In this document: in pieces, positions 37,009 through 54,919 of the stretch | Numbering within the stretch: position 1 is the stretch's first letter | Layout of the letters: each line of letters opens with the position of its first letter | DNA from: Synechococcus sp. | GTDB lineage: Bacteria > Cyanobacteriota > Cyanobacteriia > PCC-6307 > Cyanobiaceae | Direction: 5' to 3' | Length of the DNA: 64,000 nt | Assembly (NCBI GenBank): GCA_047285805.1 | Contig: JBJBCN010000002.1 | Span: 224,001-288,000 of the forward strand | The notes under the pieces: model-generated | Told to the model about the DNA's origin: nothing | Database searches by the model: none | The model's input: the letters and a program-made list of their open reading frames with translations, nothing else | Program-made: the position numbers and the translations under genes

Positions 37009-37310
37009 AGCCGGTCCATGTTGGAACCGGCTCTAGAAATGTTGAATTGTGTTCGGAGCTGCCGAGGGAGGTCACCTGGGGCCAGATGTCCAGGTGTGGG
37101 GCGGTTGTCTCCAGGAGGCACCTGAGGTGGTGCAGGTCGGAGTGTCCAGCTGCGGGGCAGAGGACCCACCCACGGTTTCGAAAGACTTGTGGAGCAGGGG
37201 CCTTCAGTCAGCTCGCTCCTGGGTTCTGGCGGGGTGGAGTGTCGTCCATCAACGCCTCCAAGATCGATGTCATCAGCATCGGCCTGCTTTGGAGAAGGCG
37301 CAATGGGACT
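37009..37310. ncRNA. Structured dispersed element, copy A
   Basis: Blocks GGAGCTGCCGAG, CACCTGGGGCC, TGGAGCAGGGGCCTTCAGTCA, GGTGGAGTGTCG, GCAATGGGACT shared with copies B and C. Confidence 0.6.
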
Positions 37311-37326
37311 GAATACTCAAATTCCC

Positions 37327-37512
37327 CTACTGGATCTCTTCTGTTTGGTCGTGCTGCCAGCGGGTCAAGGTGGCGGGCGAGAACTTATGGCCATGCTTGC
37401 GGGCAATGGCGGCCACGCAGCTGTTGTTCTCGCCGCACTTGACGAGTTCACGCTGCATGGTTGCGTTGCCTTTGGCTTTACGCATGAAAAGTTCAAGTTG
37501 ATGTCTTGACAT
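37327..37512 (-). CDS. Nif11-like domain protein
   Basis: MSRHQLELFM...MQREL...VAAIARKHGHKFS. Confidence 0.8.
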   Translation of the reverse strand: MSRHQLELFMRKAKGNATMQRELVKCGENNSCVAAIARKHGHKFSPATLTRWQHDQTEEIQ

Positions 37513-37663
37513 GGCGATTTCCATGGAAAGAACGCCCCATCGCTAGCGACTGATTGGCCGTCAAGATCCAGAGTTCAGGTTCTCTTTGCGTTCCCAAGAT
37601 GTGCTTATTGTTCTCTTTATTCAGAGGAAAAAAATCACCTACTCAGCCCCATTCGTTAGGGTC

Positions 37664-38023
37664 ATGCCCATGAACGTTTCTCCTCGTTCGGCGACTCTTC
37701 TGGGTGGTTGCGTCGCTGCTCTGACCTTGATCAGCGGAGCTGTTTCCGCGGCTGAGCGGGACCCCTATGCCCAGTTCATGAGGCATTACGAGCTGGTCTT
37801 GAAAGCCCAGAACTCAGGCGACCTCTACAGCCTGTGCCTCTCCATGCAGGCGATGGATGGACTGTTGATCGAACACTTCGCTGTCTTTGAACAGCGAGAT
37901 CCCAGTACCGACTGGATGGAGGTGCGTGCCTCCTACAAGCCTGTTCTCGATGAGCAGTGCGGCCAGGTCAGCGTCCCACCTAAGGCAACCCCCAAGGCGC
38001 CAAAGGATGATCCGCAGACCTAG
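37664..38023 (+). CDS. Secreted hypothetical protein
   Basis: Signal peptide; 119 aa. Confidence 0.65.
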   Translation: MPMNVSPRSATLLGGCVAALTLISGAVSAAERDPYAQFMRHYELVLKAQNSGDLYSLCLSMQAMDGLLIEHFAVFEQRDPSTDWMEVRASYKPVLDEQCGQVSVPPKATPKAPKDDPQT

Positions 38024-38026
38024 GGC

Positions 38027-38251
38027 TTAGTCCTCGGATTGCAGAAAGCGAGGGGCGAAGCGCCAAGCCAGTACAACCGTGGCGAGGCCATAGCCCACAA
38101 AGGTGGTCGCTTGTCCGAAGCTGCCTGTGGCGTAAAGCTCGCGCTCCAGAAGGAGGTAGTCCATCACGGACGCCACTGTTCCCCAGAGGATGACCCAGCC
38201 CGAGACGTAGGCGACCCCTTTGAGCGTGCGTTCCATGCTCACCACATCCAC
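38027..38251 (-). CDS. Two-TM small protein
   Basis: WVILWGTVASVMDY.LL...GQATTF. Confidence 0.7.
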   Translation of the reverse strand: MDVVSMERTLKGVAYVSGWVILWGTVASVMDYLLLERELYATGSFGQATTFVGYGLATVVLAWRFAPRFLQSED

Positions 38252-38433
38252 TCATCGGGGGACGGGATCCCACTTTCGCGGCGCACCCGATCGATCCGTT
38301 CGATAGCGCGTTGTTGTTCCTCGATCTTGCTCATCCAAGGACGGATCCGATTGGCCGCTTTGCTTGCATCCAGGGCAGAGGGCAGCCTGGTCAGTTTGTA
38401 GCTGGCCCCTTTGTGGGTGGTGGTCTCCGTCAT
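38239..38433 (-). CDS. Hypothetical protein
   Basis: MTETTTHKG...GIPSPDEWMW. Confidence 0.55.
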   Translation of the reverse strand: MTETTTHKGASYKLTRLPSALDASKAANRIRPWMSKIEEQQRAIERIDRVRRESGIPSPDEWMW

Positions 38434-38437
38434 CGGG

Positions 38438-38572
38438 CTATCGGTTGAGCCACAGCTTGATCGCGACCGTGGCCGCCGCAATGGCCAGGATCCAGTAAAG
38501 CCAGGTCAGGTTGAGCACCGTCGCCAGCACCAGGCCGATCACAAAGAAGACCAGAAATCGGCCCAGGGTCAT
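38438..38572 (-). CDS. 44-aa hydrophobic micropeptide
   Basis: MTLGRFLVFFVIGLVLATVLNLTWLYWILAIAAATVAIKLWLNR*. Confidence 0.55.
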   Translation of the reverse strand: MTLGRFLVFFVIGLVLATVLNLTWLYWILAIAAATVAIKLWLNR

Positions 38573-38735
38573 ATCGGCAGCAGTCTGTTGCTCTGTGGAG
38601 AGACCCTAACGCACTGTGTCCGTTGCTCTTTCAGCGATAGCAACCGCCAAAAACAAGTGTAAATGCCTAAGAGCAAACCGGTTTGTTGCTCAGCTTGAGC
38701 AAAGATCTGCTGTCGTCGTGATTTCCTAACCCGTC

Positions 38736-39179
38736 TTGGTGGTGGTGGTGGGCCCCGTAGGCCTCACCCTGGCTCTGGCCCTGCGTAAGCAGGACATCGT
38801 GGTCAGTCTCGTGGATCGGCCTCCCCAGCCCCGCGATCGCTCCAAGGCCCTGGTGATCTGGCCGCGCACCCTTGATCTGACGTGCCGCGCCCCCAGCGGG
38901 GAGACCCGCTTGCATGAACTGCTGAGGAGCGGTCGCTTGGTGCTGTTGTCCGTGGGCACCCCTCTACCGCCGCTTGATCCGTCCCTAGTGCGCGATTGGT
39001 TGGTGCCAGCCGTGGCGGCGCCCCAGTCGAGCTATCGGGCGGGCTGGGTCTATCTGATTAGGCAGGAGGCCTACCCCTTTAGCTGTGCCCCGAGCGCGGA
39101 GCGGGAGCGTCTGCTGGCGGTCTGGGAGGCGAGGCGTTGGGGTTGTTCGACGACTTGCATCAAAGAGTGGAAGATTTGA
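38736..39179 (+). pseudogene. FAD-dependent monooxygenase remnant with a large internal deletion
   Basis: N-terminal GPVGLTLALAL...SKALVIWPRTLD joined directly to C-terminal RLHELL...VYLIR. Confidence 0.75.
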
Positions 39180-39239
39180 TTAAGCCCGAAGATCGAATAT
39201 TCGCGTTTGGTCAGTTTTGGGTTGATCAGCAAAAACAAC

Positions 39240-40262
39240 ATGTTCTGGCCTTTCCGGACTGCCTCCTCTATCGGTGTCGATCTGGGGACTGCGAACACCC
39301 TGATGTATGTCTCAGGTAAGGGAATCGTGCTCGATGAACCCTCCGTGGTCGCTCTTGATTTAGAGAGAGGCATCCCACTGGAGGTGGGAGAAGGCGCAAA
39401 ACGCATGATCGGCAAAACCCCGAAAGCGATTCAGGCGATTCGTCCCCTGCGTGATGGCGTCATTGCTGATTACGCCGCCGCCGAGCTCATGATTCAAACC
39501 TTCATGCGTCGCGGCAATTCCGGCAAATCCACCGCCCCTCGGATGGTGGTGGGCATCCCGAGCAGCATCACGGATGTGGAGCGCCGGGCGGTCCGTGAAG
39601 CCGGCATCACCGGCTCCAAAGAGGTTTACCTGATCGATGAAACCGTGGCTGCCGCCATCGGCGCTGGCCTGCCGATCACCGAGCCCGTCGGCAGCATGAT
39701 CGTCGACATCGGCGGTGGCACCACCGACGTCGCTGTGCTGAGCCTCGGCTCTCCCGTGGAGAGCGAATCAATCCGGATTGCCGGCGATGAAATAACCGAG
39801 AGCATCTCCGATTACATCAAAAAGACCTATGGCCTGGTGATCGGTGAAGCCACTGCCGAGCAGGTCAAGATCAGCATTGGCTCTGCTCATGCCAATGCCC
39901 GCAATGACGATCTCCACATGGAGCTGAGCGGTTTCAACAACCGCACCGGATTGCCCGAAAGCATCACCGTCACCGCTGGTGAAATCCGCGAGGCGATTCA
40001 GCAGCCCCTGGGCGCCATCGTTGACACGATTAAGCGTGTCCTGGAGAACACTCCCCCTGAGCTCGCCACCGACGTTCACGCCCGCGGAATCGTGCTGGTC
40101 GGCGGCGGTGCCTTGATCCCCGGGATCAGTGATCTGATCACGGAATCAACCGGCATTTTCACCATCGTTGCCGATGACCCCCTCCACTGCGTCGTCAATG
40201 GCTGCGGTCAGGTGGTCGACGACTGGAGGAACCTCAAGCGCTGCACCAGCGCTGACGTCTGA
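39240..40262 (+). CDS. mreB: MreB/Mbl-family actin-like protein, without mreC/mreD
   Basis: GVDLGTANT, EPSVVA, RPLRDGVIAD, TDVERRAV, DIGGGTT, LVGGGAL. Confidence 0.93.
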   Translation: MFWPFRTASSIGVDLGTANTLMYVSGKGIVLDEPSVVALDLERGIPLEVGEGAKRMIGKTPKAIQAIRPLRDGVIADYAAAELMIQTFMRRGNSGKSTAPRMVVGIPSSITDVERRAVREAGITGSKEVYLIDETVAAAIGAGLPITEPVGSMIVDIGGGTTDVAVLSLGSPVESESIRIAGDEITESISDYIKKTYGLVIGEATAEQVKISIGSAHANARNDDLHMELSGFNNRTGLPESITVTAGEIREAIQQPLGAIVDTIKRVLENTPPELATDVHARGIVLVGGGALIPGISDLITESTGIFTIVADDPLHCVVNGCGQVVDDWRNLKRCTSADV

Positions 40263-40286
40263 GCTCCACCTCGGCCTTAATCCATC

Positions 40287-40312
40287 ACCCCGGGTGAGAC
40301 CCCGGGTTTTTT
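40287..40312 (+). terminator. Terminator after mreB
   Basis: ACCCCGGG-TGAGA-CCCCGGGT plus T-run. Confidence 0.65.
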
Positions 40313-40317
40313 GTTGC

Positions 40318-40488
40318 TCAGCTGGCTTTGGCGATGGCGAGCAGGGCCAGCAACTTGTCTTCCAGCTGGTTGATACGGCTCCATTGCGCGGTGCCCATCG
40401 TGCTGGGTGCCAGCTCAGCGCGCAGGTCATCTAACAGGCTCAAGCTTTCTTGGGTGGTCAGCTGGAGCGACGTCGTCTTGATCTTCAT
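40318..40488 (-). CDS. Small hypothetical protein
   Basis: MKIKTTSLQLTTQESLSLLDDL... Confidence 0.55.
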   Translation of the reverse strand: MKIKTTSLQLTTQESLSLLDDLRAELAPSTMGTAQWSRINQLEDKLLALLAIAKAS

Positions 40489-40533
40489 CAAGGATCCGCA
40501 GTCGAGCCCATCAAACAAGGCCCGAAGGCGCCG

Positions 40534-40740
40534 TCAAGGGCGGCTGGTCCGGCAGCGCTCCACACTGTTCTCCTCATGCCAATAGAGCAGGGCATTGGCG
40601 CGATGCAATCCACTGACGGTTTGGCAGGTCCCTGAGGCCCAGCAGACCCGGTAATCGCCATCAGGGAGGGCTTCAATCGTGGATCCCTTCGGAGTGATCA
40701 CCAGGACTCGTTCTGGATTGATCGCACAACGCTCCATCAT
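40534..40740 (-). CDS. Small protein, GSTI-YRVC family
   Basis: GSTIEALPDGDYRVCWASGTCQTVSGL; paralog at 52937. Confidence 0.65.
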   Translation of the reverse strand: MMERCAINPERVLVITPKGSTIEALPDGDYRVCWASGTCQTVSGLHRANALLYWHEENSVERCRTSRP

Positions 40741-40928
40741 CTCGTTCTTTCGTCGGTGCCCGGTGAGGCAAAAGCCCCTGGGTGGTCCGAGGGCCATCGC
40801 TGGCAGAGTTTCGGGTTCTGCCCCTGCCACCGCTCAGTCATGGCTCAGATCGCCTGGCTTTGGCAAGACTCGGCTGGACCAGCTTTTTTCGCCTGCGCGA
40901 GGTATTTAGACAGTGTTAGGCCTGGTTC

Positions 40929-41252
40929 ATGGACCAGATCCAACGACCAGAATTCCATACTGTGCTATCGACGCTGCGCCAGAGTTTTGCTGGTGATCGC
41001 GGTGTCGGCCGGGCCTTTTGGGAGAAGGGGCTGATCGAGCGCGTGGAATCCCATGCGCTCACGCCCCATCGACTCAAGGAGGCCTGCGGCTTGGTGCGCT
41101 CCTACGACTGGGCCGAGCGCTATGTCCTCGGGGCATCTGATTTGCACGAGGCCTGGAGTCGCTCCCTGGAAGTGCTGACCGCCACTAACAATCTCCTGGC
41201 CTGGGCCTCGGAGTTGGGCTTGATCTATTCCCGTTCCGCAAGTGCGGATTGA
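40929..41252 (+). CDS. Hypothetical protein
   Basis: 107-aa ATG ORF. Confidence 0.6.
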   Translation: MDQIQRPEFHTVLSTLRQSFAGDRGVGRAFWEKGLIERVESHALTPHRLKEACGLVRSYDWAERYVLGASDLHEAWSRSLEVLTATNNLLAWASELGLIYSRSASAD

Positions 41253-41271
41253 GGACAACCCTGGACGCCCG

Positions 41272-41469
41272 CTATAGCGTTGAACGCCACTCGTGAAGTA
41301 ACTGGTAGCGCCACTCGGGCCGAATCAGCTCACTACGGAAGACCGCAAAGTGATGCTGGGGGTAATCCGCCTGGGCGCGGACCCTGGCCTGTTGCCGGCT
41401 CTCAGCGATCACGTGAAAGCGACCGAAGTCGGCCGGGCCTGCGTGAAAGACCTCGTAGATGTGGTTCAT
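41272..41469 (-). CDS. Small protein, AExRQQA family
   Basis: YEVFHAGPADFGRFHVIAESRQQARVRA; paralog at 42888. Confidence 0.65.
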   Translation of the reverse strand: MNHIYEVFHAGPADFGRFHVIAESRQQARVRAQADYPQHHFAVFRSELIRPEWRYQLLHEWRSTL

Positions 41470-41524
41470 GACGCCAGTGCCTCTATCTCAGGACTAGCAA
41501 CTCGAGCAGGATGGTGTCAGTGCT

Positions 41525-41740
41525 TCAGCTGAGGTACCAATGCAGCACTGACATCACTTGACCGGCCGGGCCGTAGCCAGTGAGACACTCGCCAATCAGC
41601 GCAGCCGCGAACCCCAGCATGGCGACGCGGCCGTTGAGCTGCTCGACGCCAGCCAAGGCTGAGACGTCCCAAGGACGTTGGGACGTCATGCTCTTGCCGA
41701 AGGACTCGACGGGTTCGTAGCGGAACTCCTGCTTGTTCAT
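41525..41740 (-). CDS. hli: High-light-inducible protein
   Basis: EQLNGRVAMLGFAAALIGE chlorophyll-binding motif. Confidence 0.9.
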   Translation of the reverse strand: MNKQEFRYEPVESFGKSMTSQRPWDVSALAGVEQLNGRVAMLGFAAALIGECLTGYGPAGQVMSVLHWYLS

Positions 41741-41759
41741 CGCGAGCGGGTTGGGCTGA

Positions 41760-41996
41760 TCAGAAGCAGAAGGGAAGGTACTGGGTATGGCAGCTTGCGT
41801 AGCCGTCGACCAGGGGGCCCAGGCCGATCTGATGCGCGATGCCTTGGCCGGTGAGTCCTTCGGTGATGATCCCGATCACGATGCCGAGCATCGCCATCCG
41901 GCCGTTGAAACGTTCAACCTTTTGGAGCTGTTCCTGGTGAATTTGCTCTTCGGCGCGGTTCTTGCACCACTGGTCGGTGACTTGATTGGTGTTCAT
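41760..41996 (-). CDS. hli: High-light-inducible protein
   Basis: ERFNGRMAMLGIVIGIITEGLTGQG. Confidence 0.9.
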   Translation of the reverse strand: MNTNQVTDQWCKNRAEEQIHQEQLQKVERFNGRMAMLGIVIGIITEGLTGQGIAHQIGLGPLVDGYASCHTQYLPFCF

Positions 41997-42070
41997 GACT
42001 GTTGGGGAGCGGGTTTGAGCAAGGAGGCGGCTATCCAGCCGGCGAAGAGAAGCAGTGCGGTCAGCGCCAT
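41993..42070 (-). CDS. 25-aa hydrophobic micropeptide
   Basis: MALTALLLFAGWIAASLLKPAPQQS*; ATGA overlap with hli. Confidence 0.5.
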   Translation of the reverse strand: MALTALLLFAGWIAASLLKPAPQQS

Positions 42071-42072
42071 GG

Positions 42073-42189
42073 TTATTTGCGGGTGGGGCCCAGATCGCTG
42101 GGGCGGGAGAGGACGAACACCACTCCGGCGGTGAGGAGAGTCCCCATCACAACCATTGCTGTGATGGCCATCCCGTAGTCGGCTTCCAT
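42073..42189 (-). CDS. 38-aa single-TM micropeptide
   Basis: MEADYGMAITAMVVMGTLLTAGVVFVLSRPSDLGPTRK*. Confidence 0.55.
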   Translation of the reverse strand: MEADYGMAITAMVVMGTLLTAGVVFVLSRPSDLGPTRK

Positions 42190-42202
42190 GGCTGTGTTGC
42201 GA

Positions 42203-42231
42203 AACGTAAAGCAACTGTAACCGTATGTAAC
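42203..42231 (-). promoter_or_regulatory. HLR1 (RpaB) site and -10 element of the hli operon
   Basis: GTTACATA-CG-GTTACAGT direct repeat followed by TACGTT. Confidence 0.72.
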
Positions 42232-42287
42232 TACCTTGGCAAGTGGTTGGGATTGCTCGGCTGTCCCGCTAGGCGCGTCGGCGCGCT

Positions 42288-42689
42288 GTGTTCCGCTTCC
42301 TGTTCAACCTGCTCTGGTTTGTCCTGGGCGGATTGGTCATGGGCCTGGGTTGGTGGCTCGCCGGTCTCCTCTGCGCGATCAGCGTTGTCGGCTTGCCCTG
42401 GGCCAGCTCCTGCTTCGTGATTGGTAATTTCTACTTTTGGCCCTTCGGTCAAGAGGCGATCTCACGCCATGCCCTGACCGGCTGCCGCGATTGGGACACG
42501 GGTTCTTTGGGGACGCTCGGGAATGTGATTTGGTTCCTTGTGGCTGCCTGGTAGCTTGCGACCGGTGACCTGACCTCAGCCTTGGCCAGCTTCCTCACGG
42601 TGGTGGGGATTCCCTTTGGTCTGCAGCACATCAAGTTGGCCCAGATTGCGGTGGCTCCGGTCGGGATGATGGTCGTCTCCAATCCTTGA
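42288..42689 (+). pseudogene. yccF: YccF-domain membrane protein with an in-frame stop at 42552
   Basis: FNLLWFVLGG...WPFG; GNVIWFLVAAW*...TVVGIPFGLQHIKLA. Confidence 0.85.
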
Positions 42690-42887
42690 GCAAGATTCAT
42701 CGCAGAGGTATGCCTCAGCAGTCCTGCGACTCCCCTGATTAATTCAATGGGATCGGTCAGTAGGAGCACGGGGACAGGGTCTGGTCCCAATTCCTGGCGA
42801 TGCGCGTTGGCCTCGTTTTCCGCATGCAGGGTTTCTCTGCCATTTTGCGGTGGCGTGGCTAGGACGAGGGTCCACCCTTCACTCGTC

Positions 42888-43124
42888 ATGCTTCGGCGGT
42901 ATCAGGTCTGGAGTTGCAACGCAGACGCCGTTGGCCCGCGCTCGGTGCAGGCGGAAAACCGTCAGCAAGCACTGGTGCAGGCCCGTCGCTTCCAGCCGGG
43001 TGAGGCCTTGGTGGTGGTGGATGCGGAGCTGATGGAGCTAGCGCACCCGGTCGCTCGTGAAGGCGGCCACCATCCAGGCCAAGAGGCTCAACACGGCGGC
43101 TCCAAAGGCCAAAAAGGCCAATAA
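42888..43124 (+). CDS. Small protein, AExRQQA family
   Basis: YQVWSCNADAVGPRSVQAENRQQALVQA. Confidence 0.6.
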   Translation: MLRRYQVWSCNADAVGPRSVQAENRQQALVQARRFQPGEALVVVDAELMELAHPVAREGGHHPGQEAQHGGSKGQKGQ

Positions 43125-43159
43125 AACGTGTTCCATAAATCCCTTCTAGGACGTGCGCC

Positions 43160-43628
43160 CATGAAGCGTTGCTCGTGGCTAACTCTTCTAGCCCTGGCCT
43201 GCCTCTGCGCCAGCCTTCCATTGGCGGTCAAGGCCCACGACGGCCATGGGGCAGCGGCCCTGGGCGTTGAGGTGACGGAACTCGCCAGCTCCAGCAAGGA
43301 GTGGGATGGCCGAACCCTGCCCCGTTATCCAGATGGTCAACCCCAGGTCAAGGTCCTTCGCATCACGATCCCGGCTGGGGTTCGTCTGCCTCTGCATTGG
43401 CATCCCGTGATCAATGCCGCCTTGGTGCTCAAGGGGGGTTTGGCCCTGGAGTTGGTCGACGGTTCCAGTCGCACCTTTCGCGAGGGTGAAGCCTTAATCG
43501 AGGTGGTGAACACCATCCATACCGGCCGTGCCCTGGGGACGCAGCCGGTAGAGCTCGTGGTCTTCTACGCGGGTGTCGAGGGCTCCCCTACAACGGTCTT
43601 GACGACAACGGCCAAGCCCCCGCGCTAG
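43160..43628 (+). CDS. Secreted cupin-domain protein
   Basis: Signal peptide; LPLHWHPVINA..VLKG, EVVNTIHTG, VVFYAG. Confidence 0.88.
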
Positions 43629-43832
43629 CGCCTGGGTTGCTTGCTGCTTGATGCCACATCAGCAGGGTCGCGAACTCGCGGTTGGCGCGATCGCGGTCGC
43701 TGGCGCACTGCTGGCGAAGCCAAGCACAGCGGGCCAGGTGCGCCAAATCGGAGGCTGAAAGGCTGATGGGGAGTCCTTGCAACCCTGTCAGCTTGTCAGA
43801 TCTGAGCGGTAGTCGCCCTGTCGGTTGGCGTT

Positions 43833-44015
43833 TTGACCAGGCAGGATGCAGTTGTTGCGGCTAAGCCGGTGAAAGAGATCAGTCTTTGGGAGTGGCTCCT
43901 GCGCGCCTCCGCGAGGATCGCGGCTCTGTCTGGCGTCATTGGTCTGCTGATCTGGCTGACCTGGGTGATGCTCGACGTTAAGAACATGCAGTCGGGATTC
44001 ACCCTCCCCTACTGA
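43833..44015 (+). CDS. Small single-TM protein
   Basis: IWLTWVMLDVKNMQSGFTLPY. Confidence 0.6.
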   Translation: MTRQDAVVAAKPVKEISLWEWLLRASARIAALSGVIGLLIWLTWVMLDVKNMQSGFTLPY

Positions 44016-44142
44016 AGGGGTGCTGACGGTGCAGGGTGTCTTCCTCCGCGCAGCGCCGTGGCGCTCCGCCAGCCCTGTGATCCTGGCCTCGGCTTGAGCT
44101 CGGGCAGCGTGTTTGTTGCTACAAGCAGACCTTTAAAAAAGC

Positions 44143-44915: not shown

Positions 44916-44940
44916 ATCCTTCCCCTGCTGCAGCTCGACC

Positions 44941-45102
44941 ATGTCTGATTGGACGCCGACTCCGGAGCAGCGCGACGGCGTGATCGTGCGCACGTTGGAG
45001 TTTTTTCGCGATGAGTGCGATGAGCTGCAGCAGGAGCTGGGTTGCCCGCGGCCCTTTATCGCTGACTTGCTCACGGCCCTGGCTCAGACCTACGCCGACT
45101 GA
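44941..45102 (+). CDS. Small hypothetical protein
   Basis: MSDWTPTPEQRDG...ELGCPRPFIADLL. Confidence 0.6.
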   Translation: MSDWTPTPEQRDGVIVRTLEFFRDECDELQQELGCPRPFIADLLTALAQTYAD

Positions 45103-45175
45103 ACTGCCCCCCATCTGGGGGTAGGCCACCCGCTGAAGGCGGATTGAGAGTGGCTCCATCAGCGGACGGGAGGGC

Positions 45176-45773: not shown

Positions 45774-45844
45774 GGAGGCCTGGGGGGAGGAGCACCCCAG
45801 GCCTAAAAGCGACAACGGCGCTTTGGCATGAGTACGAACACGGG

Positions 45845-46222: not shown

Positions 46223-46235
46223 ATATTGACCGATT

Positions 46236-46497: not shown

Positions 46498-46521
46498 GGG
46501 CCCGGGTCGACTGGGATCAAA

Positions 46522-48240
46522 CTAGGAAGCCTGCTCGGATCTGGCCGCAAGCTGATGGCTGTGGGCGCACTGCAGCGCCTCGAGTCGGGTCAGGCAGACC
46601 TCCACGCCGATGAAGCGGGTGATGGCGAGCCGTCCGAGTCGTTCCCGGTAGCGCTCCTGGGGGACCGCGATGATCACCCGCCGTCCTTGGCGGGTGGCAT
46701 CGCGGCAGACCGCGTCGATGGCAAGGGAGGCCGTGATCCCCAGATGGGAGACGGCCGTGAGATCGAGGATCAAGGTGGCATAGGCAGCGCTTTCCTGGAG
46801 GAGCTGCGTCAGGTAGCGGCTGGCGCCAAAGCTCAGCGGGCCCGCCAGGTTTAAGAGCGCAAGTTCACTGCCAGCCTCCCGCAGCAGCGCTTGCTCCTCG
46901 CCAGCAAGCTTCAGTGCGTTTGGATCTCCATCTCCGCCAGCGATCCGTTGGCTGCTTTTTTGCAGGGCATCGGCCTGGTCCTTAATAGTGATCACGTTGG
47001 CCAGCGAGACCCCGATCACCACGGCGGTGACCAGGTCCCAGAAGACCGTGAGCAAGAGGACTAGCCACATCAGACCCGTGGCTTTCCAGGAGAGGCGTGG
47101 GGCGCGCTTGAGGAAGCTCCAGTCGACGATCTCCAGGCCCACATGCAGCAGGATTCCGCCCAGAACGGCTAAGGGGATGCCGGCCGCGAAGGGGCCCGCC
47201 CCCAGGGTCACGATCAGCAGGGCCAGCGAGTGCACCATCCCCGAGAGCGGTGTCCGTCCACCGGCCTGCACATTGGTTACGGTTCGCATCGTTGCGCCCG
47301 CTCCGGGGAGGCCACCGACTAGGGCGGCTGCCATGTTGCCGAGGCCCTGTCCGATCAGTTCACGATCGGACCGGTGTTGGGTTCGGGTGATGTTGTCGGC
47401 CACCAGGGAGGTGAGCAGCGAGTCAATCGAGCCCAGGACAGCGAGGGTGATCGCATAACCGCCTAGCAAGCGGAGGTCCTCGAAGCGCAGCTCCGGCCAG
47501 CGCAGGGTCGGCAGGCCCTGGGGAATGGCCCCGAGGCGGGGCAGGGATCCCTCCGGCAGCAGGGTGCTGAGAGCCGAGATCACGACCAAGGCCACTAGCG
47601 GTGCGGGGATCCAGCGGTTCAAGCGCCGGGGGTAGGTGCGAATGAGGGCAAAGGTCAGGCAGCCAATCAGCAGAGCCAGGCCGTTCAGGTTGGCGAGCTG
47701 AGCGGGGAGCGCCCCCAGGATCTGGGGGATGGTGCCCTTGAGGTTGATCCCCAGCAGGACCGGCAGCTGCAGCACAACCACGATCACGCCGATCCCCGAC
47801 ATGAAGCCGGAGATCACGGAATAGGGCATCTGCACGATGTATTGCCCAAGGCGGAAGACCCCGAAGAGAACCTGCAGTGCTCCGGCCAACAGCGCCACCG
47901 TGAAGGCCACCGCCAGGCCTGCCTCCGGGCCATAGCGACCGACCAGTGCCGTAATAACCGCGGCCATGATCACGGTCATCGGGCCGGTGGGGCCCGAGAC
48001 CTGGGAGGGGGTGCCGCCGAGGGGGGCGGCGATGAAGCTCAGGACAATCGCGCCCCAGAGGCCGGCGATGGCGCCGGCCCCTGAGGTCAAGCCAAAGGCC
48101 ATGGCCAGGGGCAACGCCACAACGGCGGTCGTGATGCCGCCGGTGATGTCTCCGCGCCAGTTCTTCAGCCAGGGGTGGCTCCAGGTCCGACTGAGTCGCC
48201 AGGCCTTGGACTCGGGGGGCTCGCGGAAAGGAGAGCGCAT
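46522..48240 (-). CDS. SulP-family anion transporter with STAS domain (BicA-like)
   Basis: GDITGGITTAVVALPLAMAFG, SGPTGPMTV, GSIDSLLTSLVADN, GAGATMRT, GPLSFG. Confidence 0.92.
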   Translation of the reverse strand: MRSPFREPPESKAWRLSRTWSHPWLKNWRGDITGGITTAVVALPLAMAFGLTSGAGAIAGLWGAIVLSFIAAPLGGTPSQVSGPTGPMTVIMAAVITALVGRYGPEAGLAVAFTVALLAGALQVLFGVFRLGQYIVQMPYSVISGFMSGIGVIVVVLQLPVLLGINLKGTIPQILGALPAQLANLNGLALLIGCLTFALIRTYPRRLNRWIPAPLVALVVISALSTLLPEGSLPRLGAIPQGLPTLRWPELRFEDLRLLGGYAITLAVLGSIDSLLTSLVADNITRTQHRSDRELIGQGLGNMAAALVGGLPGAGATMRTVTNVQAGGRTPLSGMVHSLALLIVTLGAGPFAAGIPLAVLGGILLHVGLEIVDWSFLKRAPRLSWKATGLMWLVLLLTVFWDLVTAVVIGVSLANVITIKDQADALQKSSQRIAGGDGDPNALKLAGEEQALLREAGSELALLNLAGPLSFGASRYLTQLLQESAAYATLILDLTAVSHLGITASLAIDAVCRDATRQGRRVIIAVPQERYRERLGRLAITRFIGVEVCLTRLEALQCAHSHQLAARSEQAS

Positions 48241-48429
48241 GCTGCAGCCGTTGTCAGCTCCCTTCAGGATGCCGAGGGTGGCCTCGCTGTCAGCCGTTTC
48301 GCAAACCGTTGTTGGGTGGGGGCCAGGATCAGCAAAGAGAGGCCCCCGAGTTGGAGAGCGGGCACAAGGCGATCGCTTCCAGCAATGTTATGACGCCGAG
48401 CCATTGGCCCTCGTCATGAGTGGAAATGC

Positions 48430-48645
48430 TTAATGGCCGTCGCGGTTCACGCTGCCGCGGGGCGGCATGGGGCGTTTGCGAATCGTCAGCGGGCGATTGC
48501 CGAACTGCCGCCGGGCCAAGGTGAAGGCGTGCCCCTCGCTAAAAGCAATCAGGTGCAGTTCTGAATCCCCATCGGGGAAGTGAACGGTGAGATCAAAACA
48601 GGGCAAAACAGATGCCGATCGGACACATCTCCACTTCGTAGCCAT
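48430..48645 (-). CDS. Small hypothetical protein
   Basis: 71-aa ORF in a same-strand run. Confidence 0.5.
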   Translation of the reverse strand: MATKWRCVRSASVLPCFDLTVHFPDGDSELHLIAFSEGHAFTLARRQFGNRPLTIRKRPMPPRGSVNRDGH

Positions 48646-48664
48646 GGGGGCAGGCTGGCGTCAG

Positions 48665-48907
48665 CTATTCCGGGACTTCGCTCTCTTTCTGGTGGCGTGG
48701 CTCATAGCCCTGGGCTTCCGCCAAGTAGCGCAACCAGACCTGGCTCTTGCGATCGGGCATCCCGGCTGCACCGATCAGGCCGAGGGGGCCAAAGATCAGC
48801 CCGGCCCAAAACCATCGGGCACCTCGCCTGGCTTTGGCCCGGGCGATGGACGCAGAGATGAAGCCGCAGGGCAGGCAGACCATCAGGAAACCGATCACGT
48901 AGCCCAT
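48665..48907 (-). CDS. Small membrane protein
   Basis: IARAKAR...WFWAGLIFGPLGLI. Confidence 0.7.
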   Translation of the reverse strand: MGYVIGFLMVCLPCGFISASIARAKARRGARWFWAGLIFGPLGLIGAAGMPDRKSQVWLRYLAEAQGYEPRHQKESEVPE

Positions 48908-48966
48908 GGCTGAATCTGTTACTGCTTCTCTCTTAGCAACAGTTCCTGGACGCGATCCCAGGAGGC

Positions 48967-49179
48967 TTGGATAAATCGAGCGCTGAGGGCCTGATCCCAG
49001 TACTGCAGAGCGGTCGGGTGGAGCTCTCTGCTTTGGCGTTCGCTTTTGTGGCGTTGCAGATCTATTGGCTGACTGCCATCAGTCGCCGCCGGCGTCTGGC
49101 GCAGCAGTTGCCGAAGCAGGAGTTTCTCCAGGTGCTCGAGCGGATTTGGATGCAGCGATCGCCTACTGATCGCTCCTGA
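48967..49179 (+). CDS. Small membrane protein
   Basis: ELSALAFAFVALQIYWL...LERIW. Confidence 0.55.
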   Translation: MDKSSAEGLIPVLQSGRVELSALAFAFVALQIYWLTAISRRRRLAQQLPKQEFLQVLERIWMQRSPTDRS

Positions 49180-49438
49180 TGGCACAGGTCAGGGCGCAGG
49201 CGTGCTGGTCCTCGACCATGCGCCTGAGCTCGTGATCCCGCAGCAACTGCATCAGCTGGGTTCCTCCCATGCCGCCGATGGCCGTTCCTGTTTGTTTACT
49301 CACCCATGCGCCCGCCGATTGCAGGTCGGGGAAGTGCTCGGGGCACAGCCGCATCAGGCGACCTGCCAAGCCTGTGCTGATCCAGCGCTCATGGGCTGAG
49401 CGTTTGACCTGCTCCTGGATGTATTCGGCCATCGACAT
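49163..49438 (-). CDS. Hypothetical protein
   Basis: 91-aa ATG ORF. Confidence 0.55.
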   Translation of the reverse strand: MSMAEYIQEQVKRSAHERWISTGLAGRLMRLCPEHFPDLQSAGAWVSKQTGTAIGGMGGTQLMQLLRDHELRRMVEDQHACALTCAIRSDQ

Positions 49439-49559
49439 GTGGAGCAGCCGGAGACGAGGATTGGAAACTCACCTCTTGCCTCCGGCCTAATCGGCTCCCG
49501 CAGGGCGCGGCCAGGGAATTAATACCTATTTCTTTTGCTTTCCTTCCAAATCTCCCTGT

Positions 49560-49814
49560 TCAAGTCTGCGCGTGGTTGGCCCCCGCGTGGTTCGGGAAGG
49601 GGTGGGTGCTGCTGTGGTCTCCGCCTTCGCCGTAGTGCTCCAGGTAGGAGAGCCCCACGGTGCGCAACATCATTCCGCAGGCGTGCCGGTCGGCGCCGTG
49701 CTGCTGCTGCCAGCGCTCTACAAGGGCGATGACGTCTTGATAGCCGTTCTTGAGGAAGTCCTCGGTTGGTTCCCAGGGCACGATCCTGTTGCTGTTGGGA
49801 GACGATGTCCACAC
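49560..49814 (-). CDS. Hypothetical protein
   Basis: WEPTEDFLKNGYQDVIALVERWQQQHG. Confidence 0.5.
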   Translation of the reverse strand: MWTSSPNSNRIVPWEPTEDFLKNGYQDVIALVERWQQQHGADRHACGMMLRTVGLSYLEHYGEGGDHSSTHPFPNHAGANHAQT

Positions 49815-49862
49815 AGCTTCTCAGTAATTTCCGAGGGCTGCTTGTCTTGTCATGAGCTGTGG

Positions 49863-50093
49863 TCAGGCCGCCCCTGGGCACCAGCCCACCTGGCGTTCGC
49901 GCCGGGTGAGCGAATGTCTGCGCTTTTTAGTGAGGTGTTCGCCTTGGCCGCGCTGCTTGGACTGAAGCTTGCATCCGAGCAGGGTTCGGCAATGGGCGTC
50001 GCTTCCGTAGGTGAAGTGTTTAGAGGTGATACAAACTCGCCCTGAGCAGGATGCCCGCAGCAGCTTGGCCTCCATGAATTTCCAGTTATCCAT
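49863..50093 (-). CDS. Cys-rich small protein, possibly degenerate
   Basis: VCITSKHFTYGSDAHCRTLLGC...GEHL...VGWCP. Confidence 0.55.
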   Translation of the reverse strand: MDNWKFMEAKLLRASCSGRVCITSKHFTYGSDAHCRTLLGCKLQSKQRGQGEHLTKKRRHSLTRRERQVGWCPGAA

Positions 50094-51153
50094 GCGCTTA
50101 TTGCATGGTACTCCTGTACTGCAGTTGGTTGGAGGTCAGTGCAGGCCCTCGGCTGGTGTGGGATCTCTGATTTCTGCAGTGACGGCAACAGTTAGGGCTC
50201 GCCGTTCCCGTGATAGTTCTGCCAGAAGACCAGGCCCCATGCTTCGCATGTTGACGTTTACGGCCAGCCTCATGGTGCTGAAAACGGCGATGGAGCTCTG
50301 GCTGGCTGAATCGCTCCTCCGCTCGAGCCCGTCTCCCCGTTCCTTGGCTTAGTACGGGGCCAGCGCTGCAAAGAGCTCCCGGATGGAGTCCAGGTCCAGA
50401 TCCGTGTTGATCAGGACCGAGGTTTCGAAGACCTCCTGGAAATCGCTGAGGCGTTGCCGAATCTCCTCTTCGCTTCCTTCCCAGGGCATGGGAGCCTTTG
50501 ATTGAGCTTGGTTATCCCGTGACAGGACCCTCCAGAACGCCAGCAAGCACTGTTGGCCTGGTTTAAAGGGCGTTTCGCCGAGGGATCAGGGGTGGTCGGA
50601 GGCGATTCCTTTGAGCTCCTGCCAGTTGGCGTGGCTGCTGAGTTGCGCATCAACGCTGGTGAGCGCCTGCAGAAAGTTTTCTTCTGACATGACCCCCAAC
50701 GCCGATCTCTTTCATGCTGGCAGCATGACCACGTCCGAGACGATCCTGCGGATCGCTTCGCTGTCGTCTCAGCGTTGTGTGCGGTGGCACTGGCGCTCCT
50801 CTCTCGCCGGCTGTTTGGCGTCGTCCATGACACGCTCTTGGCGATGTCGTTCCGCCCGGCTTTGGCAGTCCAGCAACAAACCCCCCAGGGGCAGGTGGTA
50901 GAGCGCGCACTGGAAGGTTGTTGATGGGGCACGTTGCACCGCACCCCTGATGAGGACGGTCCGTGACGTCGAGCCGTCTCCACTTCAGTCATGGCTCAAG
51001 CGCGGACGGAGCGGCAAGGGGGCTTTTCAGCTGGGTCACAATCTGAGGATTGCCGTTGATCGCGTCCTTGGTGCCCTATTCAGGAACCCGTGTTCAGGAA
51101 ACGCCGCTGGGTCTGAGTTACCGCATCGTCTACCAACGGCGTGGTGGTCTGCC

Positions 51154-51466
51154 GATGGATTGGTTGGATACCGCAGGCGATCCCCTGGAGGGGCTCGATC
51201 GCCTGCGGGCCCAGGAGGATTCGGCCAGGTTCTTGGCCCAGAAACGCAACACCTTCACCCGTTTTCTGCGAGCGTTTATCGCTGTCCTCCTGGTGGTGTT
51301 CAGCTTCAGTCCAGGGGCCTCACCTTGGATGTTGACCATCGGCCTGCTGATCTACCTGGAGATCGCGATCAAGTCCAAGGAGCGGGTTGGTCTCTACAAA
51401 GGAATCGCTCGTCATATCGAGCAGAGGCTGTTCGCGATCGATCAAGCCAGCCAGTCGGATCCTTGA
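51154..51466 (+). CDS. Two-TM hypothetical protein (start approximate)
   Basis: MDWLDTAGDP...FIAVLLVVF...LTIGLLIYLEIAI. Confidence 0.55.
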
Positions 51467-51505
51467 CCCGCAGCCCCTAAGGTCGCGGGAGTTTGATCGG
51501 GATTC

Positions 51506-51730
51506 ATGGGTCTGCAATTGCACTCCGCTGAGTTCCTGCATGACGACGGGCTTACCTACTGCATCAAGCGTGAATCTCTGGACCAGGACTTCACGATTTA
51601 CGAGAAGCGCTGTGAGGAATGGGTGGATAGCGGCTTGGATCAGGCGGTTAAAGACCTCAACTTCGCCGAGTTCAAGCGCTTGGGGCTGCTGATCAAGCGG
51701 ATCATGGATCAGGACAACTGGATTGCCTGA
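51506..51730 (+). CDS. Small hypothetical protein
   Basis: 74-aa ATG ORF with GC-rich third positions. Confidence 0.7.
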   Translation: MGLQLHSAEFLHDDGLTYCIKRESLDQDFTIYEKRCEEWVDSGLDQAVKDLNFAEFKRLGLLIKRIMDQDNWIA

Positions 51731-51745
51731 TCGCCCCAAGACTGA

Positions 51746-52123
51746 GCCCGCCCCTCCCGGATGGAAGAGACGGCCTAACGCGCTCGTTCATGCATGGGAT
51801 GCACCCGTTTCGTAAGGGAACGAAAGAAGGGGGCGGAGCCGCTGAGGAAGGACACCTGGGGCCAGGTGTCCAGGTGTAGAGCAGTGGTACTCCTTGGGGC
51901 ACCTGTGGCGGTGCAGATGGAGTGCCGACAGCTCAAACGCTCATGTTTGTTTGATCTGACGGGCCGCTCACGGTTTGAGAAGACTGTTGGAGCAGGCGCC
52001 TTCAGTCAGCTCGCTCCTGACATCTGGTTGGGTGGAGTGTCGGCCATCAGAGGCGTCTCCGATCTCTATGGCCATAGCTTCGGCCAGACCGAGGGGAGGC
52101 AATTGGACTTAATGCCCATTGCC
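51746..52123. ncRNA. Structured dispersed element, copy B
   Basis: Same blocks as copies A and C; ATGGAAGAGACGGCCTA hairpin shared with C. Confidence 0.6.
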
Positions 52124-52351
52124 CCGGAGGCGAAACCATCCAAGAGAGATTGGTTGCACGCCAAACGCCCGCGTAAGCGACCACTCCCGCTCTGGCTGCG
52201 TTGGCTGTCTCTCTGGAGCCTGCGCCTGATCAACATCGCTCTGGTGGGGCTGACCACCTGCGGCTTGGGCTGGGTCTGGCTGGCGATGTACCTCTACTAC
52301 GAATCGTTTAAGCAGAGGCACCTGCCGGCTTCGGGAGAGCGTCGTCGATAG
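52112..52351 (+). CDS. Basic/hydrophobic small membrane protein
   Basis: LWLRWLSLWSLRLINIALVGLTTCGLGWVWLAMYLYY. Confidence 0.5.
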   Translation: MPIAPEAKPSKRDWLHAKRPRKRPLPLWLRWLSLWSLRLINIALVGLTTCGLGWVWLAMYLYYESFKQRHLPASGERRR

Positions 52352-52433
52352 TCGTTGTACTTGTGAAGTGTTGTTGTCCTCAGTACGTACTCCGGCGGGC
52401 GCTCGTGATTGATTCGGGCAAACACTGCTTGCC

Positions 52434-52697
52434 ATGATTGAAACCCACGTGCTCACCTTCTCGATCAACAAGCCGTTTGAGGAGTGGGTCGCCACCTATG
52501 ACTCCTCGGCGCCGCTTCAAGAGGCCGCAGGGATCAAGAGCCTGTTTCGTGGGGTGAGCAAAGACGACCCCACCAAGGTCTGCGCCGTGATGCGGGCTGA
52601 AGCTGGGGTGATGGAGGAGTTCATCGCAGGCAATGCCGCGATGATTGCTTCTTCTGGTCACATCCTGGAGAGCACGGTAAGTCAGGTCTTCCTCTGA
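52434..52697 (+). CDS. DUF3764-like protein
   Basis: MIETHVLTFSINKPFEEW...GIKSLFRGVSKDDPTKV...IASSGHILEST. Confidence 0.8.
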   Translation: MIETHVLTFSINKPFEEWVATYDSSAPLQEAAGIKSLFRGVSKDDPTKVCAVMRAEAGVMEEFIAGNAAMIASSGHILESTVSQVFL

Positions 52698-52936
52698 GGA
52701 AGGTGACTGGAGGCCGCGGACCCCTTAGATGCATTTCACGCTGGCTTTCGGCTGCCATGCAGCGACCAGGTCATCGTTGGCTTGGCACTGCTGCATGTTC
52801 GCCTGCGGTACTTTCTCGAGGGAGGCCGTGGTCCGATGGGGCGAGTAGGTCGCCCAGGCGATGATCAGCCATGTGATTGGCTCGCTGGAGACTCCAGCGT
52901 TTGCGGAATCCTGGTAGTCAGGGAGGTGGATTGCGT

Positions 52937-53116
52937 CTAGTGGTGCCAGGCAACCGGGTTGCGGCATTCTTGCTCCTTCACGGCTTCATAGGCCTGCCAA
53001 AGTCCTTCGACTTCAGCGCATTTGAGGTTGCGGTCGCAGACGCGATAGCGACCGTTGCCAACCGCATCAATCGTGGAGCCGCGGCAGGTGCGGCAGATCC
53101 GCTTGGGCTCGGCCAT
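52937..53116 (-). CDS. 59-aa protein, GSTI-YRVC family
   Basis: MAEPKRICRTCRGSTIDAVGNGRYRVCDRNLKCAEVEGLWQAYEAV...; below the ORF-track cutoff. Confidence 0.65.
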   Translation of the reverse strand: MAEPKRICRTCRGSTIDAVGNGRYRVCDRNLKCAEVEGLWQAYEAVKEQECRNPVAWHH

Positions 53117-53215
53117 TTGTTTACGGCATGAAGAACGTTCCTAGGGACAATCTTTTCCGTATGGTCAGCAGTATTTCGAGGCTTCACAGACGCCGCTGAT
53201 TGCATTGCGCTGAAT

Positions 53216-53344
53216 TCAGCTGGCGTGGATCGAATAGAGCGTGATCCCCATCGCCTTGAGGATGAAGTAGCCCGTGAAGCCGAGCACATTCAGACCGATC
53301 ACAAAGGCCCAGACGCCCCACGGTTGTTGCTGATCAAGCTTCAT
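53216..53344 (-). CDS. 42-aa TM micropeptide
   Basis: MKLDQQQPWGVWAFVIGLNVLGFTGYFILKAMGITLYSIHAS*; GAGGGG RBS. Confidence 0.6.
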   Translation of the reverse strand: MKLDQQQPWGVWAFVIGLNVLGFTGYFILKAMGITLYSIHAS

Positions 53345-53487
53345 TCCCCTCGCACCGGCTGGGGTCAGTGTGTCTCGAAGCCAATATCGCCCTCACCGGG
53401 CGCCGGTGGGGAGTGTTGGTTGGGGAGCCGGAATCTGGCCCCCCGTATCGGACAACGGGGGAATGCACTCGCCCGCCACCTCAGTTG

Positions 53488-53730
53488 TTATGGCCCAGGG
53501 GCTTCTTCGGTGTCAACGCAGGGTGCCGTTGGTCGTAATGGGTCCGGTTGACCTTCGGTGATGGCCACGGAACGGTGGTAGATGGCGCTGGACCGATCGC
53601 CCGCTGATTCCATTGCCCGGCGCATGGACCACCAGTACTGAAGCGTTTCTGCCTCGGTCCACTCGGGAGTTTGAAGGTCACCCATGGACTCAACCGAGGC
53701 GGCAGCCGAGATTGATTGTCCCTTCATCAA
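53488..53730 (-). CDS. Small hypothetical protein
   Basis: YWWSMRRAMESAGDRSSAIYHRSVAITEGQPDPL. Confidence 0.65.
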   Translation of the reverse strand: MMKGQSISAAASVESMGDLQTPEWTEAETLQYWWSMRRAMESAGDRSSAIYHRSVAITEGQPDPLRPTAPCVDTEEAPGP

Positions 53731-53926
53731 GCAGGCGCCCCAGCCGTAGGGCTACTGCGGCCTCGTGGCGATTAAACGAGCCCTGATGGGAGGCAATCCA
53801 AGACACCTCGGCCTCGGTGAGCACCCCTGTGGCCATGGAGCTTAAGAAGACAGCGCCGAGAGACATGAGAGACCTGTAACGAAGTCTTTACATTCTGTCT
53901 GGCGCGGCTCGGGGCTGCGAGCGATC

Positions 53927-54076
53927 TCAGTAGCTGTTCTGCTTTAGAGCCGAAAAGCGCGACGTGCCCTCCCAAGGGGCCGGCATCGCTTTGTCGCGCG
54001 GTTTGCCGGCGTTCTGCATTTGCAGTGCGGCAGCACCAGCGGCGTAGCAGGCGGCGAAAACGGCGATGAACCCCAT
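53927..54076 (-). CDS. 49-aa micropeptide
   Basis: MGFIAVFAACYAAGAAALQMQNAGKPRDKAMPAPWEGTSRFSALKQNSY*. Confidence 0.5.
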   Translation of the reverse strand: MGFIAVFAACYAAGAAALQMQNAGKPRDKAMPAPWEGTSRFSALKQNSY

Positions 54077-54401
54077 GGCTGTTTAGTAGTTGTCAAAGGC
54101 TCTCTGAAGCGGTCCGGGTAGCGCGTTCGCCTCGAACCGTTTGGGTGCTTTGGGTATTTCTGCTCAGGGTGACTGCTGCGTCCCCCCCCCCTATCTGGGG
54201 CGATCGCAAGCTCCGCGCGCGCAAGGAGGCTGACTGCGCCGCCGAGAGGCGGGGACTGCAGGCCATTTCTCCTTTGCAGTTGGTCGGTTGAGGGGGATTT
54301 TTCTGGGAATGCCATCGCTTCAGGTTGCCTTCGTCATCCCAAAGTTTTTCTGTTGATTGATCTGAAAGGACTCCGCGCAGTCAACCTTGAGCATCTACTA
54401 G

Positions 54402-54620
54402 ATGCAGCGGGCCACTTACACCATCGAGCTCCTCACACCTCAGGGCTGGAGTTGCGCTGAGGCCCATGAGCAGCGCGAGCTCGCCGAGATGCAAGCGATG
54501 CTGAAGAGCAAAGCGGATGGGCAGACCTGTCGGATCACTTCGCCCGAGCTGAGAACGCTTTGCCTTTTTACGAAGCAGCGCGCGCGTTGTTGGGAGCTGG
54601 ATCAGCCGACCATGGCCTAA
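54402..54620 (+). CDS. Small hypothetical protein
   Basis: YTIELLTPQGW...AMLKSKADGQTCRI. Confidence 0.65.
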   Translation: MQRATYTIELLTPQGWSCAEAHEQRELAEMQAMLKSKADGQTCRITSPELRTLCLFTKQRARCWELDQPTMA

Positions 54621-54621
54621 T

Positions 54622-54919
54622 GGGTAGGCCGCCCCCCCCCGCATGGAAGAGACGGCCTACCTCGCTCGCGTATGGGGCAACTGCTAAGGACAAGAGTCGA
54701 ATGGGCCTGGAGCTGCTGAGCGCAACACCTGTGGCCGGGCCTCCAAGTGGAGGCCCATCCGTTCTGCCACGGGTGGATGAGAAAACGCCGTGGAGCAGGG
54801 GGCTTCCGTCACGTGCTTCGTTGGTCTTCTGAGGTGGCGTGTCGTTCAATACGCTTCCATCACCGCTGCATCCACCATCGTTCGTATCGAGGGGGCAATC
54901 GGACTTCATGCCTATTGCC
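54622..54919. ncRNA. Structured dispersed element, copy C
   Basis: GGAGCTGCTGAG, CACCTGTGGCC, TGGAGCAGGGGGCTTCCGTCA, GGTGGCGTGTCG, GGCAATCGGACTTCATGCCTATTGCC. Confidence 0.58.

Follow-up and report, generated by a model that had tools for sequence, protein, structure and literature searches.

Three diverged, intergenic repeats lie among small open reading frames (ORFs) in a 64,000-nucleotide (nt) window of the Synechococcus sp. assembly GCA_047285805.1 (contig JBJBCN010000002.1, positions 224,001 to 288,000), and the locus raises the question of what these repeats are, which strand encodes them, and what their product does. An earlier note, made from the sequence alone, flagged the three stretches, here called copies A, B and C, as a non-coding structured RNA of the plus strand; position numbers throughout are those of the whole 64-kb window. 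We find that the repeats are in all likelihood copies of the gene for Yfr103, a published RNA, and that they are very probably transcribed from the minus strand. What appears not to be described in the literature searched is a conserved micro-ORF that is joined to the outer helices of this known RNA family.

Identity and copy number of the repeats

Comparison of the three window stretches confirmed that A, B and C are homologous, and the sequence blocks that the earlier note listed occur at the places and in the order it gave, except that the gap in TGGAGCAGG..CTTC is 3 nt and not 2. A hidden Markov model built from A, B and C finds eight copies in the 2.37-Mb genome at E ≤1e-39, with the next match at E 1.2, and a sequence-only model also gives eight; together with the covarying fold described below, this bears out the proposal of a multicopy structured RNA gene. 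A search of the whole window gives the repeats no Rfam 15 family at its gathering threshold, and the region 51600–55100 searched at E<10 has just two matches, both at chance level. The absence of an Rfam family thus stands, but the repeats are not unrecognised, as they match the published description of Yfr103.

In the section on Yfr103 and the spreadsheet of Hou et al. (2016; PMC5069720), this RNA has seven paralogs of 290–328 nt in Synechococcus CC9605 (NC_007516.1; Yfr103b is 326, Yfr103e 291 and Yfr103d 292 nt) and is attributed to Voigt et al. 2014. Of the primary-transcript reads from Red Sea water that were assigned to this strain, 55.2% come from Yfr103. Homologs with a conserved structure are reported there from marine Synechococcus and low-light Prochlorococcus, an imperfect palindrome is placed at -29 to -58, and the RNA is described as non-coding, its function being termed enigmatic (PMC5069720). 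We assign the repeats to Yfr103 because they match it in palindrome position, size, number of copies, range and extreme abundance, and in part in their island neighbours, an identification that rests on matching features and descriptions rather than on alignment to a named Yfr103 sequence. The palindrome of copy B lies at -29 to -54, counted from a start inferred from the -10 box, and the eight copies here include B at 325 nt, A at 266 nt and C, which carries a deletion, at 246 nt. The range also matches, with ecotypes inferred here from genome size and GC content, and is wider than that published, reaching at least 28 genera. Very high abundance in marine metatranscriptomes, as for Yfr103, recurs here in two of four runs.

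The neighbourhoods are alike in part. The starts of C and B share a strand and are separated by 2798 nt, with a YRVCD-type ORF between them, and those of Yfr103b and Yfr103e are 2874 nt apart, also on one strand and with a YRVCD-type small ORF (Syn_n011) between (PMC5069720). The ORF in our window (52937–53116, minus strand; 59 amino acids) has the motif YRVCD..C..V.G.W.A and no Pfam match, and has two relatives in the genome, one of them near another copy; the YRVCD motif is found at two other places (three ORFs in all, two near copies). An SPFH gene is near copies here and near Yfr103e/b, but on opposite sides. Neither the section on Yfr103 nor the spreadsheet (PMC5069720) has an ORF led by a Shine-Dalgarno (SD) sequence, whereas one is present here, and the parts of PMC12873609, PMC6596454 and PMC7368042 that were covered contain nothing on the family's RNA.

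With copy B as query, the family is present in 198 of 250 other genomes of the host family and in 28 of its 36 genera, including A+T-rich genomes of 1.7–2.0 Mb; as in all counts given here, related genomes are not independent. No match is seen in two genera, g25 (0/23 genomes, 1.6–1.7 Mb) and g21 (0/7). Outside the host family one of 138 genomes gives a match (L072), which is weak, partial and without the family's motifs, and was rejected.

The family has spread as a DNA cassette of promoter, RNA and terminator. Copy B is 97% identical to another copy in the genome from -83 to +333, and there are two near-identical paralog pairs, B/F and D/H; the duplicated unit takes in the promoter, and its ends are not the same between the pairs. 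A TCTTGG repeat is present on both sides of B and F and not at their orthologs, and copies hold their positions in close relatives. The earlier suggestion of a non-autonomous mobile RNA finds no clear support in view of this promoter-containing unit and these stable positions. The family has no match among 50,697 phage records, and among 78 IMG/VR matches to a 15-mer there is no full copy, two of them being marginal. In one other genome (L091, G088:C1:2266500-2270500) the whole 450-bp cassette is present three times in tandem with 99.6–99.8% identity, which could be a recent amplification or an assembly artefact.

Strand, promoter and terminator

Each copy is a self-contained gene consisting of a promoter, an RNA of about 245–325 nt and a terminal hairpin. 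The features of the three copies are as follows.

37003–37268, minus strand: copy A, predicted transcript of 266 nt; start at 37268 inferred from the -10 box
37300–37324, minus strand: copy A, degenerate promoter palindrome, with -10 box GATGCT at 37275–37280
37208–37259, minus strand: copy A, SD and micro-ORF; GGAGG at 37255–37259, predicted ORF 37249–37208 encoding MDDTPPRQNPGAS, then stop
37055–37219, minus strand: copy A, predicted folded core, helices P2–P9
37003–37034, minus strand: copy A, terminator hairpin with U-rich tail
51745–52069, minus strand: copy B, predicted transcript of 325 nt; metatranscriptome contigs pile up on 51810–52055
52098–52123, minus strand: copy B, promoter palindrome GCAAT-N14-ATTGC at -29 to -54; -10 box GAAGCT at 52076–52081
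52006–52060, minus strand: copy B, SD and micro-ORF; GGAG at 52057–52060, predicted ORF 52047–52006 encoding MADTPPNQMSGAS, then stop
51835–52017, minus strand: copy B, predicted folded core, helices P2–P9
51745–51777, minus strand: copy B, terminal hairpin rich in G+C, with G.U pairs on the minus strand and a poor U tail
54622–54867, minus strand: copy C, probably decaying, 246 nt
54895–54918, minus strand: copy C, promoter palindrome, with -10 box GATGGT at 54874–54879

The RNA is very probably transcribed from the minus strand and not, as had been supposed, from the plus strand, because folding with corrected ends, the promoter with its -10 box, the terminator tails and the wobble pairs of helix P9 all indicate this direction, as does the reading frame described below. 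With corrected ends the minus strand folds with z-scores of -2.98 (A) and -3.28 (B), compared with +0.11 and -2.53 for the plus-strand stretches, and the minus strand folds better than the plus in seven of the eight copies. In P9 there are 15 G.U cells against one A.C, favouring the minus strand.

To the right of the core is a palindrome, GCAAT-N14-ATTGC; among 71 upstream regions, 64 are best fitted by the 14-nt spacer. Its right half resembles a -35 element (TTGC) and is followed by a -10 box of the GAnnnT type and then by a start region with conserved CAUC. The palindrome is kept in A+T-rich genomes and some family members are without its left half; because this half mutates without compensation, we regard the palindrome as a DNA site rather than as part of the RNA. 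The GCAAT..ATTGC block is the promoter and lies outside the RNA, which moves the proposed boundaries: GCAATNGGACT, which the earlier note took into its element, belongs to the promoter palindrome, and its proposed CGATG/CATCG and TGGCC/GGCCA stems extend across the predicted start and the -10 box.

Most copies have a second conserved element about 75–95 nt upstream of the start, C/A-rich and then nAnnnT, which could be another -10 box or a binding site, and it is at this element that the B/F duplication starts. A regulon search of the genome with the palindrome gave no other clear targets. The top promoter-profile match outside the copies (site C2:1367640) is a related palindrome with a GATGGT box at G000:C2:1367617-1367665, without a Yfr103 body.

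To the left of the core a best G+C hairpin was located in 66 of 67 copies, and at least four U follow it in 56/67 while at least four A precede it in 21/67, counts that have no shuffled control; the U tails of B and C are poor. In two of four marine metatranscriptomes the contig depth over 51810–52055 is 5e3–4e5, and in these two runs it is at most a few hundred outside the element, palindrome included (51400–52600 covered).

Several observations weigh against these assignments. The other two metatranscriptomes show only a few-fold excess on the element, and the contigs sum paralogs and relatives, with strand and exact ends not visible in them. Over a whole 60-pair model there are 102 G.U against 124 A.C cells and thus no G.U excess, and we regard the count over all helices as uninformative as a strand test. 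RNAalifold gives a lower energy for the G-rich plus strand, and a consensus scanner reports neither a promoter nor a terminator at the predicted sites.

A conserved micro-ORF at the 5′ end

A GGAGG sequence, or a close variant of it, lies roughly 10 nt from the predicted 5′ end. We examined 74 anchored stretches and set seven aside, which on inspection proved to be copy C, a divergent partial copy, and five anchors that were spurious or duplicates. All 67 analysable copies have a start codon 4–10 nt after the SD (AUG in 60, UUG in 7), opening a frame that begins M-x-(x)-D-T-P-P, in which the first position of the motif is Asp in 66 copies and Glu in one, Thr is present in 64, and each Pro in all 67. 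Entropy is 0–0.19 bit at codon positions 1 and 2 compared with 0.39–1.61 at position 3, and in the two shifted frames the amino-acid entropy is ten times higher. GACAC-U-CC occurs a second time in the core, where it is not translated, and there every position is variable. In the genome, six of 8459 sites with GGAG and a start codon yield the motif, all six within the family's RNA, and outside the family, matches to the SD and DTPP pattern are single and scattered, and about as frequent as those to a reversed-pattern control. These comparisons show a reading frame under selection, and the micro-ORF is very probably translated.

The ORF is 7–14 codons long with a free tail, and its stop codon usually falls inside the outer helices, the invariant U.A of helix P3 being the ORF stop. 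In 61 of 66 copies, 39 or 42 nt separate the start from the P3 stop, and the P3 stop is in frame in the 61 found by script and, by inspection, in L070; the five copies at 38 or 40 nt, which are out of frame, all have an earlier stop. The second Pro codon is 12 nt from P2 in 53 of the 67 copies, 11 nt in nine and 14 nt in four. Copies A and B encode MDDTPPRQNPGAS and MADTPPNQMSGAS respectively, in a common 13-codon frame on the minus strand. The earlier statement that the copies lack a common frame is therefore right for the plus strand and wrong for the minus strand of A and B, and non-coding is, strictly, no longer a fitting description since a conserved SD-led micro-ORF is present.

A fresh set of 39 loci from 14 further genomes, 36 of which could be anchored, has the SD-led motif in 30, and 28 of these 30 stop at or before P3. 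By hand count the first Pro codon in the 30 is CCA in 13, CCC in 15 and CCG in two. The other six loci comprise three that are 5′-partial and three that keep the 13-codon frame with the SD or the Pro-Pro altered, as judged partly by eye; the diverged L196 and L208 keep a 13-codon frame after loss of DTPP.

Not all of the copies fit this arrangement, and three observations speak against it. An early stop is present in 14 of the 61 in-frame copies, so that reaching P3 is not required. In L210 and L212, from one genome, the ORF runs into the core for 31 codons, with a 2-nt deletion common to both. In copy C the frame likewise reads into the core, for 93 codons. Its SD is now GGAAG, the start is a UUG at 54849, and a 1-nt deletion removes the stop; the mutated SD and missing stop are consistent with the decay of copy C.

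One further locus (L100:160-290) has the promoter, an SD and an 18-codon MTEDTPP ORF, after which a folded domain cannot be recognised. The micro-ORF was not found in the literature searched or in the Hou spreadsheet; a prior mention elsewhere may exist.

The folded domain

Covariation shows the 3′ part of the RNA to be a folded domain of 165–185 nt, with nested helices and invariant loops. The final model has eight nested helices with 45 pairs, from an alignment of 40 copies of less than 88% mutual similarity; 86% of the cells are paired and 27 of the 45 pairs changed on both sides. Partners slid along the alignment give 33–41% paired cells, and none of 500 shuffles is as high, although these controls flatter the model because it was derived from the same sequences and the genomes are related. 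The long-range pairing of GGAGC with GCTCC in the earlier note holds up, with compensatory change in 14 of 40 rows, and among 65 scored copies P2 takes the forms GAAGC/GCUUC (40), GGAGC/GCUCC (19) and GCAGC/GCUGC (1). Other stems of the earlier note fared less well: the GCGGTTG/CAGCTGC and GAGCAGT/ACAGCTC pairings are not the covarying partner, and the GNRA-capped stem is not conserved between copies. Two stretches, UGCUCCA and GGCCCCAG, are invariant and partly unpaired, and the tail between the core and the terminal hairpin is variable.

Copy C is without about 70 nt of this core (P7–P9), a deletion common to genome G023 and absent from G103; in G045 the body of C is gone and its promoter side is kept.

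Helices P1a (SD with ORF) and P5 (UCCA/UGGA) were dropped from the final model, their pairs being broken by uncompensated variation. A hairpin CCUGG/CCAGG suggested by single-sequence folding is less well kept than CCUG/CAGG; neither has compensatory change, and an alternative fold may hold. Resemblances to a T-box, to a tRNA-Pro 3′ end and to tmRNA were also rejected, the relevant bases being unconserved in A+T-rich copies, with no Rfam match. A search of the genome for complementarity to the invariant 10-mers gave counts at a chance-like level only.

How the RNA might act

The family has no shared downstream gene, its 65 neighbours falling into 56 clusters with 37 on the opposite strand, so that the suggestion of a leader of a downstream gene can be discarded. 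The reading we prefer, with a probability of roughly 0.45, is that a ribosome on the micro-ORF shields the RNA and gates its folded domain, coupling it to the state of translation. The 5′ part would be a ribosome-loading site (SD, AUG or UUG, micro-ORF) at which a ribosome initiates near the 5′ end and protects it, which we propose explains the abundance of the RNA; SD-like sequences and stalled ribosomes near 5′ ends are described as stabilising RNAs in the relevant part of PMC7509114. Slowing at Pro-Pro may put the leading edge of the ribosome at P2, and finishing the ORF would open P2 and P3 only, with the stop barring the ribosome from the inner core. Ribosome traffic would thereby decide how long the folded domain lasts and whether it is open or closed, and the domain would act in trans on a putative partner. 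The RNA would then signal the capacity for translation (EF-P or prolyl-tRNA) and would not regulate a neighbour; Pro-codon leader ORFs that sense EF-P through RNA refolding, in cis, are described in the section of PMC6460261 on such leaders. Two considerations tell against this proposal. Thr ahead of a proline run is the weakest stalling context in E. coli, according to the part of PMC4176338 covered, and strong arrest is doubtful because Thr precedes the prolines here. In addition, early stops are frequent among the copies.

A more specific form, which we consider quite unlikely, is that the RNA parks ribosomes: the micro-ORF would load a 70S ribosome, Pro-Pro and the helix at the entry channel would hold it, and the domain would contact the ribosome or a translation factor, such that ribosomes are stored or metered with light and temperature. 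If true, this would be a kind of RNA without a described counterpart in the literature searched.

Parts of this arrangement are known elsewhere. In mgtL/mgtP, as treated in PMC6460261, a short Pro-containing ORF likewise overlaps helices and translation speed could switch the fold, but these leaders control a downstream operon, whereas the present copies share no downstream gene and have a large, conserved domain. The dual-function RNAs RNAIII and SgrS/SgrT also carry a small ORF and a structured part on one transcript, although their peptides, as described in the part of PMC2518516 covered, are longer and of fixed length, compared with 7–14 residues, a free tail and a stop inside a helix. Yfr8/Yfr9 of Prochlorococcus MED4, in the same part of that source (PMC2518516), are similar in being 290 nt, structured and island-borne with a peptide ORF on one strand, but are set apart by their description as a sense-antisense pair with a 44-amino-acid ORF in high-light strains; the present family was not found in genus g25 (0/23).

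Two alternatives have to be weighed more closely. In one, which is unlikely, the peptide is the product: a free micro-peptide, encoded by the RNA as an mRNA, would bind a protein through its M-x-D-T-P-P head, and the domain would be a stabilising or regulated 3′ untranslated region. The conservation of Asp and Thr as amino acids besides the prolines suits this idea, as do the weak stalling context of TPP and the retention of promoter and MTEDTPP ORF without a recognisable core at L100. However, the length varies between 7 and 14 residues and the tail is not constrained, L196 and L208 keep the 13-codon frame despite the loss of DTPP, and a domain of 165–185 nt with invariant unpaired bases exceeds the needs of an untranslated region.

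In the other, which we hold to be just as doubtful, the RNA is a plain trans-acting structured RNA or protein sponge. The SD and ORF would then have no sensing role, being either accidental or a constitutive shield of the 5′ end. The RNA was published as non-coding with a conserved structure (section on Yfr103, PMC5069720), UGCUCCA and GGCCCCAG are invariant where single-stranded, and an SD alone can stabilise RNAs (PMC7509114, same part). Such a shield would require the SD only, and not a conserved D-T-P-P with synonymous variation, a fixed spacing to P2 and a stop in P3.

Type I toxin-antitoxin systems pair a hydrophobic peptide with a conserved antisense RNA. That the family is a selfish or mobile unit, either a toxin-antitoxin mRNA of this type or a non-autonomous element, is very unlikely; the many island copies, the near-identical pairs B/F and D/H, the tandem triplication in one genome and the ability of the SD to pair with a 3′ CCUCC in some copies are in keeping with it, but the peptide is short (7–14 amino acids) and hydrophilic, positions are kept in close relatives, the duplicated unit takes in the promoter, and the phage collections searched hold no copy. 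A weak antisense start is on record for Yfr103g, but it is negligible, with 14 reads against 146,261 (spreadsheet, PMC5069720).

A cis-acting, Pro-sensing attenuator of the mgtL kind, with read-through into the next gene, is highly improbable: a Pro-Pro leader ORF does overlap helices and a terminator follows, but there is no shared downstream gene, the neighbours are mostly convergent, no conserved antiterminator is seen, and the tail from core to hairpin is variable. An undescribed plus-strand RNA from GGAGC to GCAATNGGACT, as first proposed, is barely credible. Watson-Crick helices are strand-symmetric, the consensus energy is lower on the plus strand, and a single pair, at the end of P3, suits U.G there. 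However, the invariant A of this pair is the third base of the stop codon, the -10 box, terminator tails, P9 wobbles and ORF all belong to the minus strand, and the palindrome region lies outside the abundant RNA.

Neighbouring features

An Rfam Cyano-1 RNA is located at 33174–33242 (minus strand). Yfr1/Yfr10 (Cyano-1), as described in the part of PMC6778093 covered, have C/U-rich CUCC-type motifs as found here, but the present family has no Rfam match, its first motif consists of codons and its second is paired in a helix. A 65-amino-acid Nif11-domain ORF (37327–37524, minus strand) ends just upstream of the copy A promoter, and an MreB/Mbl gene (39207–40262, plus strand) is at the edge of the small-ORF region. 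A Glutamine-II riboswitch (56766–56826, minus strand) overlaps the 5′ end of a DUF4278 ORF (56583–56783), and the window also holds PPK2, sulfate permease, P450 and SPFH genes. The Cyano-1 and Glutamine-II matches, together with the genome size of 2.37 Mb, point to a picocyanobacterial host.

Meaning for the family

Since the RNA family is already published, the claim of its discovery in the earlier note falls. With the helix model, a wider range and copy C as a natural deletion variant, there is now an alignment for the Rfam family that has so far been lacking. The conserved SD-led ORF with its stop in an outer helix would move the Yfr103 class from non-coding to translated and may explain the invariant bases at the 5′ end, and it would make the function of this enigmatic RNA directly testable.

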